From an uncultured Clostridium sp. (GTDB taxonomy: Bacteria > Bacillota > Clostridia > TANB77 > CAG-508): a stretch of 64,000 nucleotides of DNA. The notes beneath the pieces are model-generated. The model did no database searches, was not told where the DNA came from, and saw nothing but the letters and a program-made list of their open reading frames with translations. The position numbers and the translations under genes are program-made. Shown piece by piece: positions 9,080 through 61,767 of this stretch. Each line of letters opens with the position of its first letter. Position 1 is the first letter of the stretch. The DNA lies in the NCBI GenBank assembly GCA_947384775.1, contig CANDIF010000002.1, forward strand, positions 123,967 to 187,966, read 5' to 3'.

Positions 9080-9166
9080 AGCTCCACATGAAAGTTTATT
9101 TTTAAAATTTTAAACAACTGTATTAAAATTTTAAAAATCGAACTTTCAGCAAGGTGGAGCGGACTT
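9080..9166 (+). repeat. Palindromic intergenic repeat, copy 1 (type A core). It lies in the murD 5' leader.
   Basis: agctccacatgaaagtt...aactttcagcaaggtggagcgg. The arms carry compensatory changes relative to other copies (tgaaagtt/aactttca versus tggatgtt/aacatcca). Confidence 0.8.
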
Positions 9167-9212
9167 AATAATTTCAAAATACGAATTTCATTCTATCACT
9201 AATATATGCTTT

Positions 9213-9255
9213 TTGCAATAAATTATTGCAATTCCATAATCAATTGTGATATAAT
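9213..9255. promoter_or_regulatory. Divergent murD/lemA promoter region with a perfect 19-bp palindrome TTGCAATAAATTATTGCAA that supplies a -35 box on both strands
   Basis: lemA side: TTGCAA, 18 nt spacer, TGaTATAAT. murD side: TTGCAA, 17 nt spacer, TAGAAT on the minus strand. Confidence 0.4.
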
Positions 9256-9291
9256 TCATAATGTTAAAATATTAATTTAGGAGGTAATATT

Positions 9292-9852
9292 ATGGGACCA
9301 CTTGTAATCGTTTTAATAGTAATTGCCGTATTAGTTTTAATAGTAATTAAATTATATAATGACTTAGTAAAACTACGTCAAAAAGTAAGAAATGGATGGA
9401 GCCAAATTGATGTACAACTACAAAGAAGATTTGATTTAATCCCAAACTTAGTAGATACAGTAAAAGGATATATGGCTCATGAAAGTAGTGTTCTTGAAAA
9501 AGTAACTGAACTTAGATCATCATGGGCAAATGCAACTTCTATAAAAGAAAAATCTAATTTGGATAACGAACTTTCAGGAGCATTAAAAACAATCATGGCA
9601 GTTTCTGAAAACTATCCTGATTTAAAAGCTAATCAAAACTTTTCACAATTACAAGAAGAATTACAAAATACAGAAAACAAAATAGCATTTTCTAGACAAT
9701 TCTATAATGATGTTGCTACAAAATACAACACAAAAATAGAAGTAGTTCCTTCAAATATCATTGCAAATATGTTCGGTTTCAAACCAGAAGAACTATTCCA
9801 AGTAGATACAGCAGAAGCTAGAAAAAATGTTAAAGTTGATTTTAATAATTAA
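9292..9852 (+). CDS. lemA: LemA family membrane protein
   Basis: N-terminal TM helix followed by NDLVKLRQKVRNGWSQIDVQLQRRFDLIPNLV, which is the LemA signature. An AGGAGG ribosome-binding site is present. Confidence 0.8.
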   Translation: MGPLVIVLIVIAVLVLIVIKLYNDLVKLRQKVRNGWSQIDVQLQRRFDLIPNLVDTVKGYMAHESSVLEKVTELRSSWANATSIKEKSNLDNELSGALKTIMAVSENYPDLKANQNFSQLQEELQNTENKIAFSRQFYNDVATKYNTKIEVVPSNIIANMFGFKPEELFQVDTAEARKNVKVDFNN

Positions 9853-9905
9853 TCAAACAAAAAGAACTTTGGATTTCCAAAGTTCTTTTTGTTGTTAATT
9901 GTTTA

Positions 9906-10664
9906 TTATTCTATATTGAATACTTTTTTTGCATTTTCATATGTTATTCGTGCTACTTCTTCTAGTGGAATATTCTTCACATCTGCAATTTTTTGTGCTA
10001 TATATTTTACATTTCTTGAATCGTTTCGTGTTCCTCTTAGTGGTTCTGGGCTTAAATATGGGGAGTCAGTCTCTATTAGCATCTTTTCTAGCGGTACATA
10101 TTCTATAACTTGATTAGCATTTTTGGAATTTTTAAAAGTAATTGGTCCTGCAAATGATATATAAAACCCTAATTTCAAACCTTCTTTTATTAGTTCAATG
10201 TTAAGTGGGCAACAATGAAATACTCCCCTCGTTTTATGTGTTTTCAAGATTTCCAAAGTATCTTGTACAGCTTCTCTTGTATGTATTACTATTGGCAAAT
10301 CTAATTCATTTGCTATTTTTATTTGTTGGATAAATGCATGTTTTTGAATATCCTTGTTTTCTTTATTCCAGTAATAATCCAATCCAATTTCTCCTATTGC
10401 TATTACTTTTTCATCTTTGGCAAGTGTTTTTATTTTTTCAAAATATTCTTCTTTTAAATCATCAATATCATTTGGAGAAATACCTGCCGTCGCATATACA
10501 AAATCATAAATATTGGCTATTTCTATTGCTTTTTTAGTTGTTTCTAAGTTATATCCTGCAGTTATTAATTTTGTTACTCCTGCTTTATATATTTCCTCTA
10601 CAATTTCTGTTTCATTTGCAAATTTCTCATCATTATAATGAGCATGACTATCAAATAATTCCAT
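9906..10664 (-). CDS. tatD: TatD-family metal-dependent DNase/hydrolase
   Basis: MELFDSHAHYNDEKF N-terminus, TatD HxH motif and a conserved C-terminus. Confidence 0.85.
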   Translation of the reverse strand: MELFDSHAHYNDEKFANETEIVEEIYKAGVTKLITAGYNLETTKKAIEIANIYDFVYATAGISPNDIDDLKEEYFEKIKTLAKDEKVIAIGEIGLDYYWNKENKDIQKHAFIQQIKIANELDLPIVIHTREAVQDTLEILKTHKTRGVFHCCPLNIELIKEGLKLGFYISFAGPITFKNSKNANQVIEYVPLEKMLIETDSPYLSPEPLRGTRNDSRNVKYIAQKIADVKNIPLEEVARITYENAKKVFNIE

Positions 10665-10689
10665 CTTAGTCTCCTTTTATTCTCAAACT

Positions 10690-10779
10690 AGCTCCATGTG
10701 GATGCCCCGATTTTTCTTTTTTGAGCAACTGCTACACCAAAAGAAAATGTCCAACATCCAACAAGATGGAGTGGATTTT
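10690..10779 (+). repeat. Palindromic intergenic repeat, copy 2 (type B core). It begins 26 nt upstream of the tatD start codon.
   Basis: agctccatgtggatg...catccaacaagatggagtggatttt. Confidence 0.8.
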
Positions 10780-10789
10780 AAAGTGCACA

Positions 10790-11164
10790 TTATTCTACTA
10801 ATATTACAACATTAGCCACTGCATATTCATGGCAATGCGAAATACTTATATCAATATTCTTTATATTCTCAAATTTAATCCCGACAAACTCTACTGCTGG
10901 ATTTCCATTTTCATCATTTATTACTTGTGCATTATGCCAGCTTATATCAAACTTATTTTTAAGCAATGCTGATACTGCCTTGAAAATTGCCTCTTTTGCT
11001 GCAAATCTTCCTGCATAATGATAATATTTTGCTGCTCTTCTGCTTTCGCAGTATTCCTTTTCAGCTGGTGTATATACCAAATTGGTAAATCTCTCCCCTG
11101 AATGTTCTATTGATTTTTTTATTCTTTCTATTTCAATTATATCTGTGCCACATAATACTCTCAT
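10790..11164 (-). CDS. acpS: Holo-[acyl-carrier-protein] synthase AcpS
   Basis: MRVLCGTDIIEIERI...RFAAKEAIFKA matches the AcpS family (GxD...RFAAKEA). The start is at the internal ATG that has an AAAGGAAGGG ribosome-binding site. The longer ORF in the track has no such site. Confidence 0.8.
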   Translation of the reverse strand: MRVLCGTDIIEIERIKKSIEHSGERFTNLVYTPAEKEYCESRRAAKYYHYAGRFAAKEAIFKAVSALLKNKFDISWHNAQVINDENGNPAVEFVGIKFENIKNIDISISHCHEYAVANVVILVE

Positions 11165-59992: not shown

Positions 59993-60127
59993 ATAAAAAT
60001 TCCTCCTTCGAATATTGCGACATAATATGTCATGTTCGATAACCCAATTATACTTGTAAAATGAGTAATAGTAAATAGAAAAAGTGAAAATGTAATATAA
60101 ATGTAATATAAATTAGGTGCAAAAAAC

Positions 60128-60215
60128 AGCTCCTCGTGGATGTTCATTTTTAAAATTTTGAGCAACTGCATCAAATATTTTAAAAATCGAATATCCAGCA
60201 AAATGGAGCAGGCTT
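60128..60215 (+). repeat. Palindromic intergenic repeat, copy 11 (type A/B hybrid core), between divergent genes
   Basis: agctcctcgtggatgttcatttttaaaattttgagcaactgcatcaaatattttaaaaatcgaatatccagcaaaatggagcagg. Confidence 0.8.
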
Positions 60216-60350
60216 CAATTTATATGGCGATTTTGATGGTTTATGCCTATAATACTAGTTTTTTGTCAAATTATAGTGTATAATTAAATAGTATTTAAAA
60301 GAATAAAGAAACGTACTAATTATAAAATATAATAGAAAGAGGTTTAGCTA

Positions 60351-61127
60351 ATGTTCTCAAAATCAGGAGTATATGAGGCATGTGGAATGTTTACAATAGG
60401 GCATTTTGTTTTAATAGGAATTACAGTAATTGCAATTATCATATCACTAAAATTAACTAGAAAAAAAAGCAAAGAACAAGTACATAAAATAATAACGTGT
60501 CTAACAATTCCAATATGCATATTAGAAATAGTAAAGATAATATTTAATATAACAATAAATTCTGTTAAAAATATAAACACATATGTACCGCTATATTACT
60601 GTAGCATGCTAATATATGCTGGATTACTTAGTTCCTTCGGAAAAGGAAAAGTACGAAGAATAGGAGATGTATTTTTAGCAACAGGAAGCATAGTAGGGGG
60701 AATAGTGTTTGTATTATTTCCAACAACTTCTATACCATCATATCCAATATTCCATTTTATAAGTTTACATAGCTTTTTCTTTCATGGAACAATGATATAT
60801 TTAGGACTATTAGTAAATATAACAAACTACATAGAATTGAAAAAAGATGACATTAAGTATTTTGTAGCACTTGTAGGAACAATATGTGTATTTGCCTTAA
60901 TTGTTAATAATATATTTGATAGTAACTTGATGTTCATATCAAAAAACTTTCCAAATTCTCCATTAGAAATAATATACAATCTAACCAATGGAACAATTTT
61001 ATATAATTTAATAATGATATCAGTACAATTAACATTACCATTTTATGTACCATATTGGATTATAAAAAAAGTGAAGAAAGTAAAAATTGAGGAAGCTGAA
61101 GTAAAAGAGACAATAGAAGCATGTTAA
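60351..61127 (+). CDS. Integral membrane protein (TIGR02206/YwaF-like family)
   Basis: 258 aa with about 7 TM helices. The N-terminal MF..G..H..L pattern resembles the TIGR02206 family. The assignment is tentative. Confidence 0.45.
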   Translation: MFSKSGVYEACGMFTIGHFVLIGITVIAIIISLKLTRKKSKEQVHKIITCLTIPICILEIVKIIFNITINSVKNINTYVPLYYCSMLIYAGLLSSFGKGKVRRIGDVFLATGSIVGGIVFVLFPTTSIPSYPIFHFISLHSFFFHGTMIYLGLLVNITNYIELKKDDIKYFVALVGTICVFALIVNNIFDSNLMFISKNFPNSPLEIIYNLTNGTILYNLIMISVQLTLPFYVPYWIIKKVKKVKIEEAEVKETIEAC

Positions 61128-61130
61128 AAT

Positions 61131-61196
61131 AAAGAGGGATCCTAAAATAGGAACCCGAAAGCAAAAATTCCAGTGAGAAATCGCTGGAATTTTTGT
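61131..61196 (+). repeat. Conserved 3'-UTR element, copy B, with an intact second hairpin and a T-tract (functional terminator form)
   Basis: aaagagggatcctaaaataggaacccgaaagcaaaaattccagtgagaaatcgctggaatttttg. Confidence 0.6.
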
Positions 61197-61313
61197 ATAT
61201 AAATTTTTGATATTATATCGTATAAAAATAGCTTTTGCTATTGCTATTTCTATACTCTTTTCTATATCTTTCCTATTCGTCCTTTTTATATTTAATGCAA
61301 AGCATAGAAGGTC

Positions 61314-61445
61314 CTATTCTAGGTCAACTTTTTCAAAACCTCTAAGCAAGAACCGCTTGAATCCCATATTCCATTTTATTTGCCCAAATATTCCTTCAGA
61401 ATATTCTGCTCTTTTTCCTCTCATTTCAATACCTTTTTTAGACAT
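61314..61445 (-). mobile_element. IS1182-family-like transposase remnant (C-terminal 43 codons only)
   Basis: The minus-strand ORF MSKKGIEMRGKRAEYSEGIFGQIKWNMGFKRFLLRGFEKVDLE* matches the conserved C-terminal (...FGQxKxNxGFxRFxLRGxxKV...) region of IS1182/IS5-superfamily DDE transposases. No upstream remainder of the transposase is present. Confidence 0.5.
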
Positions 61446-61683
61446 AAGATTTATTTTGGCTTCTTATTTTAGTTTCCACAACTTCTTGTTAAATCTAATT
61501 TGTCTATTTCGCTGACAGCCCCCTTGGTAAAGGGGCTTTTTTGTTAGTCCTTCGAAGCACGGGTCGCTGAGGGTAGCGACCCCTACAACGTTTGCAATAA
61601 ATCTTCTCATTTATTTTATTAGAAATTTCTTCGAAGACTGGCGATTGATAATCGCCCCTACACCTAATTTTATGCACAAGAGT

Positions 61684-61767
61684 AGCTCCACGTGGATGTT
61701 TTAATTTATTTGTGCATGTCCTGACAAAACAAAAAATTAAAACATCCAGCAAGATGGAGCGGATTTT
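61684..61767 (+). repeat. Palindromic intergenic repeat, copy 12 (type C core). It lies 100 nt upstream of the htpX start.
   Basis: agctccacgtggatgttttaatttatttgtgcatgtcctgacaaaacaaaaaattaaaacatccagcaagatggagcgg. Confidence 0.8.

Follow-up and report, generated by a model that had tools for sequence, protein, structure and literature searches.

The window, the whole 64-kb stretch of DNA that was analysed, carries twelve copies of a palindromic repeat in spacers next to genes such as murD, tatD, murT, gatD, polC, rseP, gatC and htpX (Table 1). All twelve copies reported in the initial annotation were located, with 0 expected by chance, and the family is real, dispersed and intergenic. A search with the arms, allowing up to three mismatches, finds 10 left and 11 right arms in the window compared with 0.00 expected in shuffled sequence; every match falls within the twelve copies, and a profile HMM and a covariance model each return precisely these twelve. 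The hairpin module spans 81–87 nt from TAG to CGGA, and alignment agrees with the four core sub-types first described. The copies are not identical (mean column identity 69%), and c1, c2, c10, c11 and c12 are found again in other, independent assemblies of the species—c1 in nine of them—so that they are not assembly artefacts, a worry raised at the outset. Since the 10 kb on each side of the window hold no copy, the density is approximately one per 7 kb over 84 kb, lower than the one per 5 kb originally given.

Table 1. Copies of the palindromic repeat in the 64-kb window and their component parts
Feature	Position	Strand	Context
c1 hairpin, core A	9079-9163	+	between divergent murD (-) and lemA (+); murD start 31 nt away
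c2 hairpin, core B	10689-10775	+	acpS/tatD spacer (both genes -)
c3 hairpin, core C	24492-24572	-	gatD/ATP-grasp gene spacer
c4 hairpin, core B	25352-25435	-	murT/gatD spacer
c5 hairpin, core A, consensus arms	26862-26946	+	ychF/murT spacer
c6 hairpin, core A, arm variant common to c1	35846-35930	+	rseP/polC spacer
c7 hairpin, core D	36727-36807	+	cdsA/rseP spacer
c8 with outer parts	42909-43065	+	between mraZ (-) and DUF4364 gene (+)
c8 left terminal repeat GTTACTAATCAA	42909-42920		
c8 hairpin module, core D	42947-43028	+	
c8 29-nt insertion within right arm	43024-43052		
c8 displaced right end TCGGATTTTTATA	43053-43065		
c9 hairpin, core A	43705-43790	+	between convergent DUF4364 (+) and rlmB (-)
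c10 full-length element and target duplication	56081-56235	+	55 nt upstream of gatC (-)
c10 left target duplication (TSD-L) TTATTAAA	56081-56088		
c10 element TTAC...GTAA, 139 bp	56089-56227		
c10 inner hairpin, core A	56117-56201	+	
c10 right target duplication (TSD-R) TTATTATA	56228-56235		
c11 hairpin, core B	60127-60212	+	between 415-aa gene (-) and TMEM164-like gene (+)
c12 hairpin, core C	61683-61763	+	~95 nt upstream of htpX (+)

The hairpin module features a 6-bp stem (GCTCCA/TGGAGC), an asymmetric loop with CG opposite GCAAGA, and a long stem that starts with TGGATG/CATCCA and ends in a variable AT-rich apex. Its predicted stability is high, with z-scores of -3 to -8.7. As first proposed, the pairing is retained by compensatory changes: 93.6% of cells are paired as compared with 79.8% in shuffles. 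The arm variant described as compensated in copies 1 and 6 is fully so in c1, but one of the two changes in c6 is uncompensated (TGAAAG opposite CTTCCA). The further claim that selection acts on the hairpin and not on the primary sequence does not hold, since both the arms and the unpaired loop bases (TA, CG, GCAAGA, and GGA) hardly vary in sequence across six species; the apex varies in sequence yet remains paired. The wobble counts—12 G·T versus 14 A·C—favour neither strand, a symmetry more in keeping with a DNA palindrome than with a strand-specific RNA.

The family is also present in five further uncultured Clostridia MAGs and in one metagenome contig, and its distribution over six species is patchy. 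The hairpin matches no family in Rfam, in line with the initial annotation, which had recognised no named ncRNA family, and the repeat is absent from the phage and plasmid collections. The copies have no coding capacity, are strictly intergenic, and occur in both orientations. This general profile fits a MITE.

The genes flanking the window copies are mostly on the minus strand, so that in most transcripts the repeat would appear in reverse-complement form relative to the sequence as written. Eight of the twelve copies precede a start codon by 25–55 nt (murD, tatD, the ATP-grasp gene, gatD, murT, polC, rseP, and gatC), whereas the ninth that had been counted within 25–60 nt, the htpX copy, is farther away. 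Inside operons, these copies are also found 14–42 nt past the preceding stop codon, as in c2, which has the acpS stop 14 nt before it and the tatD start 25 nt after it. Divergent genes flank four copies and convergent genes one. The proximity to start codons is largely an outcome of insertion into short AT-rich intergenic spacers.

The copies are insertions, because the orthologous spacers in relatives are empty. The spacers ychF–murT, murT–gatD, and gatD–ATP-grasp are 145, 161, and 135 nt long in the window as compared with 0–43 nt in five relatives, L030–L034 (MurT identity 65–85%), which contain no copy anywhere in 11–21 kb. In these relatives, the ychF–murT spacer, the site of c5, is 13–43 nt long, and murT and gatD overlap (ATGA/TAATG). 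The copy c6 is missing in the sister lineage L035, where the rseP/polC spacer is 78 nt long versus 167 nt in the window. The copies c3 and c4 are old insertions, and c3 has a degenerate orthologue in L035; the orthologue of c7 has decayed there beyond detection. Strain L040 carries neither c11 nor c12, and the whole segment of c11 is replaced there. The sites of c8, c9, and c10 are unoccupied in L041 (GatB identity 95%), which bears a degenerate copy of its own elsewhere in the PBP–gatC spacer. At the c10 site, L041 features a single uninterrupted target, TATAATAA, and reads ...GTTATATAATAA followed by TTGAAG...; the window reads TATAATAA, the 139-bp element (TTACTATTCA...GTGTAA), TTTAATAA, and TTGAAAG. 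The two halves of this 8-bp duplication match at 7 of 8 positions.

Another full-length copy resides in the MAG MGBC139318 (L010, 3584-3725). It is a 142-bp palindrome whose 12-bp terminal repeats, GTTACTGTTCAA and TTGAACAGTGAC, are complementary at 11 of 12 positions, with a perfect 8-bp target duplication, CTTTATTT, on its two sides. Five further copies show 7-nt direct repeats in the same register. Such repeats occur at 7 of 29 copies versus 0.88 in mismatched controls, and 0 of 1000 permutations reach 7—the distance ranges of this test having been picked after the data were seen. The terminal repeat is common to the species (TTACTATTCA in c10, GTTACTAATCA in c8, and GTTACTATTCA/GTTACTGTTCA in MGBC139318), with the consensus (G)TTACTnTTCA. 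The data show that the copies were inserted and that those of full length carry terminal repeats together with 8-bp duplications. The comparison recommended at the outset, of presence/absence polymorphism and target-site duplications, decided the nature of the element.

We assign the family, with a probability of roughly 75%, to the MITEs, small non-coding mobile elements, the twelve repeats being the conserved inner hairpin. The inserted unit is longer than the 81–87 nt hairpin, which forms only its inner part, and measures 139 bp at c10. The order of the parts in a full-length copy is a terminal inverted repeat, a variable spacer of approximately 17–20 nt, the hairpin, a further spacer, and the inverted terminal repeat. 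In a TIR/TSD scan of the window, only c10 has the complete pair of terminal repeats along with a target duplication; c8 has one terminal repeat. The other ten copies have unrelated flanks just outside the hairpin, including type A copies that are ~90% alike inside, and this would not be expected if the element always moved as a 140-bp unit. In most of the window copies, the termini can no longer be recognised, and these copies are probably immobile remnants. Across species, the inner module is more conserved than the spacer beside the termini, which, like the orientation bias described below, counts against a MITE.

A DDE transposase acting in trans probably moved the element. The enzyme would be encoded elsewhere and bind the ends, its DDE type being suggested by the staggered 8-bp cut, and insertion would take place into AT-rich 8-bp intergenic targets with duplication of the target. 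Copying then gave rise to the sub-families, which are marked by core types and by shared arm variants, for example the one in c1 and c6. A parent insertion sequence or transposase was found neither in ~0.6 Mb of loci, including overlapping stretches of the same species, nor in the plasmid and phage collections.

An unlikely alternative is that the hairpin was primarily selected by the host, either as an RNA stem-loop of 5' UTRs and intercistronic spacers (a stabiliser, an RNase processing site, or a protein-binding site) or as a DNA site of a host protein, and that the transposon traits of a few copies merely spread it. The near-invariant arms and loop bases with a variable but paired apex, the hairpin stability, and the eight copies close to start codons speak for such a role, as does a sub-family in MGBC139318 whose outer stem contains a tandem G·A/A·G pair that just one of the strands tolerates. 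In addition, old copies in the window lineage retain their GC-rich arms—8 of 96 arm positions are mismatched as compared with 25 of 96 in the L035 orthologues (p = 0.002), based on three orthologous pairs—and 31 of the 33 changes are GC to AT. However, copies within operons are found in both orientations relative to transcription (~15 as the reverse complement and 8 as written, judged by reading of ORF maps), and G·T and A·C pairs are about equally frequent. Some copies lie between divergent or convergent genes, the genes flanking copies in other MAGs are functionally unrelated, and near relatives run the same operons without any copy. The copies are also decaying in the sister lineage. The orientations, the wobble counts, and the divergent and convergent sites likewise give no support to a dedicated 5'-UTR RNA role.

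It is very improbable that the repeats are REP/REPIN-like and travel as single-stranded hairpins mobilised by a RAYT-type (Y1/HUH) transposase, which would read the asymmetric hairpin and a 5' (G)TAG. The family resembles REP/REPIN systems (PMC3733652, PMC3116915, PMC5581495) in being high-density extragenic palindromes with ~100-nt hairpins and in its long persistence at orthologous sites. REPs carry a GTAG tag (PMC3733652), and here 28 of 30 copies have TAG directly 5' of the stem, with GTAG there in 9 of 30. The conserved asymmetric loops would tell the strands apart, the reverse-complement form is on the G-rich strand in 22 of 30 copies (p = 0.016), and Group 1 RAYTs have been reported in Clostridia (PMC5581495). 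Intact copies here together with decay in a sister lineage, which may have lost the partner enzyme, resemble REPIN populations after RAYT loss. Against this, the full-length copies bear terminal inverted repeats and 8-bp target duplications, whereas HUH transposition makes no duplications. Moreover, the element is AT-rich and 81–87 nt long (~140 nt at full length), unlike the GC-rich REPs of 20–40 bp, and its single arms are not independent conserved palindromes, TCCACGTGGA being broken in c1 and c6. Neither Pfam labels nor Pfam scans revealed a Y1 transposase in any locus examined, and no RAYT was found.

Still less probable is a function as intrinsic (bidirectional) transcription terminators or attenuators. 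A terminator would suit the hairpin, which is stable, GC-rich at its foot and succeeded by GGATTTT(A) as written, the often A-rich left flank, and the position of some copies at gene ends (c9, L020, and L008 2249-2344), as well as the lack of the T run in c3 and c4, the two copies transcribed as written in the murT–gatD–ATP-grasp operon. But none of the five copies in 24–44 kb passes a simple terminator criterion, the T run comprises just 4 nt and is 3 nt off the stem, and seven copies are located within operons right before essential genes (polC, murT, gatD, and rseP). In addition, c9 adjoins a separate and better terminator-like palindrome (43648-43689), and this reading leaves the target duplications and empty sites unexplained. 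Integron attC-like sites bounding gene cassettes have a negligible probability: the likeness of two stems with an unpaired spacer and a variable terminal structure is superficial, as the ends lack RYYYAAC/GTTRRRY core sites, both orientations and target duplications are seen, no integrase is nearby, and the intervening housekeeping genes keep the order of relatives without the element.

Among the closest known systems are bacterial MITEs that form long hairpins, such as Correia elements of Neisseria and RUP of Streptococcus pneumoniae. These are likewise short and non-coding; their many copies are dispersed between genes, bear terminal inverted repeats and target-site duplications, fall into sub-families, are present in some relatives and absent from others, and give mRNAs stable stem-loops where they are transcribed. 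Their sequences are unrelated, and the duplication in Correia is TA as compared with 8 bp here. The present element also differs in being a near-complete foldback with no parent insertion sequence found and in that conservation is highest in an inner module with fixed asymmetric loops and not at the termini. The 8-bp duplication is shared with the IS6/IS26 family, including the long Clostridial clades VII/VIII (PMC6807381), although several other IS families also produce 8-bp duplications. The terminal repeats are further alike in having G at position 7 and in a CTGTT core common to GGTTCTGTTGCAAA (IS257 in pSK41), and the terminal repeat of Clostridial members does not begin with GG (PMC6807381). 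The likeness to IS257 does not reach significance (best p = 0.0165 in 12 comparisons), and no IS6-like transposase was present in any locus examined.

For the organism, an uncultured member of the gut Clostridia in which the copies lie among housekeeping genes, the repeat is a familiar type of genome parasite and not a new regulatory RNA. The retention of GC-rich arms here and their decay in L035 hint at a constraint beyond transposition, since old copies should not keep their arms if they were purely selfish immobile relics. Because the element is a near-perfect palindrome, a copy transcribed in either orientation would form a stable stem-loop of approximately -23 to -34 kcal/mol in the 5' UTR or intercistronic spacer, and such stem-loops could alter mRNA processing or stability as a side effect.

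The twelve palindromic repeats c1–c12 proposed in the initial annotation are real. Two arm sequences, searched with at most three mismatches, give 10 and 11 matches in the window, all of them within these copies and none outside, and dinucleotide-preserving shuffles give none. A covariance model built from the copies recovers precisely c1–c12 in the window, as does a profile HMM; model R1 and the pattern GTTACTNTTCA serve as descriptors of the family for searching. The inner hairpin module—enclosed in a full-length element by spacers and terminal inverted repeats—spans 81–87 nt in the twelve copies, with the conserved TAG and CGGA as its limits. 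Full-length copies measure 139–142 bp, under the bound of about 300–500 bp for a miniature transposon, and neither the module nor the full-length element contains an ORF. The four core sub-types (A to D) are upheld as sub-families by alignment of the copies, whose mean column identity is 69%. Every copy forms one long hairpin of near-equal folding energy on both strands: the RNA fold of c5 reaches −34.3 and −34.2 kcal/mol on the two strands (z = −7.6 and −8.7), and its DNA fold is at approximately −24 kcal/mol. A short insertion splits the right arm of c8. Five copies (c1, c2, c10, c11, and c12) were found again in public assemblies made independently for the same species, and the copies differ from each other; they are therefore not assembly artefacts.

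The window has a GC content of approximately 28% and a GC skew of approximately −0.2 to −0.3, with the majority of genes on the minus strand. All twelve copies occupy intergenic DNA; the flanking genes are co-directional for seven, divergent for four, and convergent for one. The flanking genes already named in the initial annotation were found again along with some further ones and comprise murD, lemA, tatD, acpS, an ATP-grasp gene, gatD, murT, ychF, polC, rseP, cdsA, mraZ, a DUF4364 gene, rlmB, gatCAB, a SpoVD-like PBP gene, and htpX. A start codon follows 25–55 nt downstream of eight copies, and copies within operons also lie 14–42 nt past the stop codon of the preceding gene. Orientation in operons is mixed, with approximately 15 copies transcribed as the reverse complement and eight as written, as judged by reading the ORF maps of all loci. 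The bias with respect to strand composition is moderate, the reverse-complement form being on the G-rich strand in 22 of 30 copies (p = 0.016).

Outside the window, the distribution is patchy. Five MAGs of uncultured Clostridia, including one from a catalogue of the mouse gut, contain an exact 20-mer of the right arm, and the two-arm pattern leads to one metagenome contig. The profile finds 17 full copies in 8-kb stretches around these matches, at most three per 8 kb, all intergenic and with ordinary unrelated genes as neighbours; the scans of genome collections and metagenomes used arm patterns, and the recovered relatives are biased to copies with a canonical right arm.

Orthologous loci at graded distances were obtained via homologues of MurT. 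The spacers holding c5, c4, and c3 measure 145, 161, and 135 nt in the window but only 0–43 nt in five relatives with MurT identities of 85, 79, 76, 71, and 65% (L030–L034), and murT and gatD overlap in two of these. No copy was found across 11–21 kb of the five relatives. A closer sister-lineage locus, L035 (94% MurT identity), features degenerate orthologous copies with matching core types at the c3, c4, c5, and c7 sites. The c6 spacer measures 78 nt in L035 versus 167 nt in the window, and c6 is absent there; L035 may retain a remnant at this site (TTTACTTCTAGTCT), in which case the absence could be a deletion. Homologues of GatB supplied two further loci, L041 (95%) and L043 (93%), neither of which holds an intact copy. 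No copy sits at the c8, c9, or c10 site in L041, which carries its own decayed copy—an independent insertion—elsewhere in the spacer where c10 sits. The presence/absence comparison proposed earlier thus finds c3–c5 empty in L030–L034 and c8–c10 empty in L041, and it identifies the window copies as insertions.

The ends of the element are best seen at c10, where the flanks of the window and L041 align cleanly. The empty site in L041 reads ...GTTATATAATAA|TTGAAG..., and the window reads TATAATAA-TTACTATTCA...GTGTAA-TTTAATAA-TTGAAAG, in which the insert runs from TTACTATTCA to GTGTAA. The search for target-site duplications, likewise proposed earlier, yields at c10 an 8-bp duplication that matches in seven of eight positions and is confirmed by the empty site. 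The terminal repeats TTACACTTTA and TTACTATTCA match in 7 of 10 positions. Copies in MAG MGBC139318 are longer palindromes; the full-length element at L010 of this genome is flanked by a perfect 8-bp duplication, CTTTATTT, and direct repeats of 7 nt occur in the same register at five further copies. In-register direct repeats of 7 nt or more are present at 7 of 29 copies versus 0.88 expected, a number reached in 0 of 1000 permutations; the control paired left and right flanks across different copies, and the distance ranges were set once the data had been inspected. The terminal motif is common across species, with TTACTATTCA at c10 and GTTACTAATCA at c8, the latter copy having a single terminus, the left end GTTACTAATCAA. 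Terminal inverted repeats together with 8-bp duplications, as found in these full-length copies, are the defining features of a miniature non-coding transposon (MITE), and the mover would be a transposase making staggered 8-bp cuts.

A scan of the twelve window copies for termini found both ends and a duplication only at c10, ten of the twelve being without recognisable termini, and no short duplications were found directly at the foot of the hairpin. The type A copies c1, c5, c6, c9, and c10 are very alike inside the hairpin and have unrelated sequence just outside. Alike interiors, unrelated flanks, and missing termini leave two options: most copies are aged relics with decayed ends, or the inner module is able to spread, or to be homogenised, independently. 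The element's outer arms appear to vary from species to species.

The copies would be mobilised in trans by a DDE-type transposase, presumably with a preference for AT-rich intergenic 8-mers as targets (TATAATAA, CTTTATTT, TAATTTT, and TTTTAGG). No autonomous insertion sequence with matching terminal repeats was found in the window or the other loci (approximately 0.6 Mb, overlaps included) or in the plasmid and phage collections, and no fetched locus carries a transposase Pfam label. ORFs between inverted copies (loci L001, L002, L005, and L008) were considered as transposases and rejected, as they encode a sigma factor, radical SAM enzymes, PFL, and a nucleotidyltransferase; a conserved DUF4364 protein is encoded by the 177-aa ORF that separates c8 from c9. 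The 8-bp duplication, a CTGTT core, and G7 recall the ends of the IS6 family, for which IS6/IS26 membership is defined by the terminal repeat GGTTCTGTTGCAAA (GG start, G7) and an 8-bp duplication. G7 and the 8-bp duplication are present in the element, and the GG start is absent from its termini. Similarity to the IS257 repeats, read from pSK41 as GGTTCTGTTGCAAAGT, is not significant (best p = 0.0165 among 12 comparisons), and no IS6-like transposase gene is encoded in the examined loci (approximately 0.6 Mb, with overlaps). Clostridia have long IS6-like elements with 8-bp duplications and ends that are rarely GG-initial (PMC6807381). IS6 parentage is a lead, not a finding.

The strongest rival to transposition is a hairpin kept by the host. 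Thirty copies from six species, aligned to the model, feature standard pairs in 93.6% of pair cells compared with 79.8% when partners are shuffled, and this value drops to 36–49% on shifting the partners one to three columns. The covariation test called for in the initial annotation detects two-sided changes in 14 of 23 pairs, with the observed score reached by 0 of 500 shuffles. From the excess of pairing and the covariation score, it follows that the hairpin is maintained. The initial annotation had argued for selection on the hairpin rather than on primary sequence; this claim does not hold as stated, since the pairs are kept but the sequence of arms and loops is also conserved across species. 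Hardly any variation is seen in the outer stem of 6 bp, at the beginning of the inner stem, or in the unpaired TA, CG, GCAAGA, and GGA. G·T pairs number 12 versus 14 A·C pairs, the latter being G·U on the opposite strand, and neither strand is favoured.

Decay of the element is lopsided between lineages. Third codon positions of the window and L035 are 73–84% identical, and the orthologous elements are 68–75% identical. Arm mismatches to the family consensus amount to 8/96 in c3, c4, and c5 of the window versus 25/96 in their L035 orthologues (Fisher p = 0.002), and 31 of 33 arm changes are from G/C to A/T. These three orthologous pairs are suggestive of something preserving the GC-rich arms in the window lineage although mutation in this genome presses towards AT. 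Purifying selection could do so, as could gene conversion between copies or dependence on a partner protein lost by the sister lineage. The inner module is better conserved than the spacer adjacent to the termini, has fixed asymmetric loops, and appears to be maintained in one lineage. Beyond serving as a scaffold for transposition, the module may have been exapted, being recognised sequence-specifically through the fixed unpaired TA, CG, GCAAGA, and GGA around the 6-bp stem and held by purifying selection after loss of the transposition ends, with the sister lineage losing its hairpins after loss of the partner factor; we regard such exaptation as improbable. If true, the housekeeping operons of this lineage of gut Clostridia would have hundreds of identical hairpins wired into them for recognition by a protein or RNase.

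The element resembles REP sequences in its TAG tag, high density, and persistence, and a REP/RAYT origin was pursued because of the tag and the asymmetric loops and dropped upon finding target duplications and terminal repeats. Single-strand mobilisation by HUH enzymes, as in REP/RAYT, leaves no target duplication; the terminal repeats and 8-bp duplications argue against it. The likenesses are superficial: a REP is a GC-rich imperfect palindrome of 20–40 bp and a REPIN consists of two inverted REPs, whereas the element is a single AT-rich hairpin, and its size, composition, and target duplications place it outside REP. In c1 and c6, the local palindrome of its left arm, TCCACGTGGA, is disrupted, but the long hairpin persists. 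As to the unpaired GTAG (or CGTC) tag of REPs, 28 of the 30 copies carry TAG and 9 of the 30 carry GTAG, with the TA unpaired and the G paired, and Y1_Tnp (RAYT) is absent from the Pfam labels of the examined loci.

Other candidates were considered as well. A simple scan for intrinsic terminators (GC-rich stem followed by a run of at least five T) calls no copy between 24 and 44 kb or around c10. For integron attC sites, the copies lack R''/R' core sites (RYYYAAC...GTTRRRY), uniform orientation, and an adjacent intI, and what lies between them is housekeeping genes in conserved synteny. A parS-like site with a CACGTG centre was rejected, since only c1 and c6 resemble a half-site and the copies are far too dense, and a K-turn or other GA-motif internal loop is contradicted by inspection, the CG strand being without GA. 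Phage or plasmid origin was rejected, since the scan of viral contigs gave six chance matches in GC-rich contigs and no full element, and blastn against plasmids and phages matched the AT-rich core alone, by chance. Rfam at gathering thresholds reports only two tRNAs in the window; at E ≤ 10, the copies match only eukaryotic miRNA-precursor models with 15–29 bits versus thresholds of 54–113, which is the mark of a generic long hairpin.

That the family was not recognised under any name in the initial annotation agrees with its absence from Rfam and from the phage and plasmid collections. No description of the element was found in Rfam, the repeat surveys consulted, or the searched collections, and PMC3733652 mentions no Firmicutes or Clostridia. 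The repeat family is previously unannotated; the kind of element is known, as Correia elements and RUP are likewise hairpin-forming bacterial MITEs.

Several neighbouring features were observed along the way (table). The split of rseP, whose L035 orthologue is a single 241-aa M50 peptidase, implies a frameshift, by which the gene is either a pseudogene or subject to a sequencing error; rsmH/mraW looks truncated or frameshifted. Since ychF and the acetyltransferase gene are adjacent in L035, the interval between them in the window is a small accessory island. The palindrome beside c9 resembles a terminator acting in both directions and has no relation to the repeat family. A rearrangement breakpoint at the copies was considered for L040, a mouse-gut strain of the same species, and rejected, as homology stops 42 nt from c12 and not at the element. 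The short hairpin of L040 could be the remnant of a collapsed copy or a terminator of the kind that gave rise to the element.

Coordinates of element copies and of neighbouring features in the window and in loci of other genomes
Feature	Locus	Position	Description
Divergent tRNA-Pro(TGG) and tRNA-Arg(ACG)	window	2244-2516	Only convergent-to-divergent switch region near window start
ychF–acetyltransferase interval	window	~28100-31400	
ParE-family toxin gene	window	28217-28558	Within the ychF–acetyltransferase interval
451-aa gene	window	29875-31230 (+)	Same interval; no Pfam match
rseP	window	35972-36698 (-)	Two overlapping ORFs (35972-36415, 36315-36698), 727 nt in total
ORF downstream of rsmH/mraW	window	40528-41037	No Pfam match
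rsmH/mraW ORF	window	41325-41906 (-)	Spans only positions 29-217 of the 309-position Pfam model
Insertion in c8 right arm	window	43024-43052	29 nt, after TGGA
Canonical end of c8	window	43053-43065	TCGGATTTTTATA
Palindrome beside c9	window	43648-43689	18-bp stem, AATAATCTAGATATTTCA...TGAAATATCTAGATTGTT; between convergent DUF4364 gene and rlmB
c10 insert	window	56089-56227	139 bp, ends TTAC/GTAA
htpX–PBP segment	window	58553-61810	Replaced in L040 as compared with the window and locus L039
Replaced htpX–PBP segment	L040	11301-15295	728-aa Big_2 protein and 159-aa gene in place of a 415-aa gene; TMEM164-like gene inverted, only 88.8% identical; without c11 and c12
Short hairpin	L040	~14355-14377	GGATGTTCATTTTGAACATCC, then T run; stem sequence equals the inner stem of the element
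Full-length element	L010	3584-3725	142 bp, ends GTTACTGTTCAA...TTGAACAGTGAC
GC-rich palindromic insertion	L035	13345-13614	ATP-grasp–murB spacer; GGGGACGGGGTCAAATGACAT...ATGTCATTTGACCCCGTCCC, GGGTGTCAAA repeats before it; differs from the element, absent from window and L034
Flank motifs of a copy	L006 (MAG CALXVG01)	~2320-2540	ATTTGTATCAT in both flanks, ~60 nt out, inverted; AGTTTCATT closer in

In this uncultured lineage of low-GC gut Clostridia, the family fills twelve intergenic spacers of the window and splits formerly translationally coupled genes (murT–gatD). Transcribed copies would form stem-loops in 5' UTRs or between cistrons, with a possible effect on mRNA processing or stability. 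The c10 target includes a TATAAT hexamer upstream of gatC, which a consensus promoter scan did not call; if this is a −10 box, the entire element would become the leader of gatCAB. The covariance model together with the signature of terminal repeats and duplications lets annotators mask or label the elements, and the copies, whose gain and loss distinguishes close relatives, are usable as strain or lineage markers. The family also cautions against interpreting such hairpins as riboswitch-like regulators. Stem-loops of approximately −23 to −34 kcal/mol before essential genes (polC, gatCAB, and murD) constitute a natural experiment on what operons tolerate, and the upkeep of the arms set against the AT-biased decay in the sister lineage offers a testable case in which either the host constrains MITE relics or these evolve in concert.
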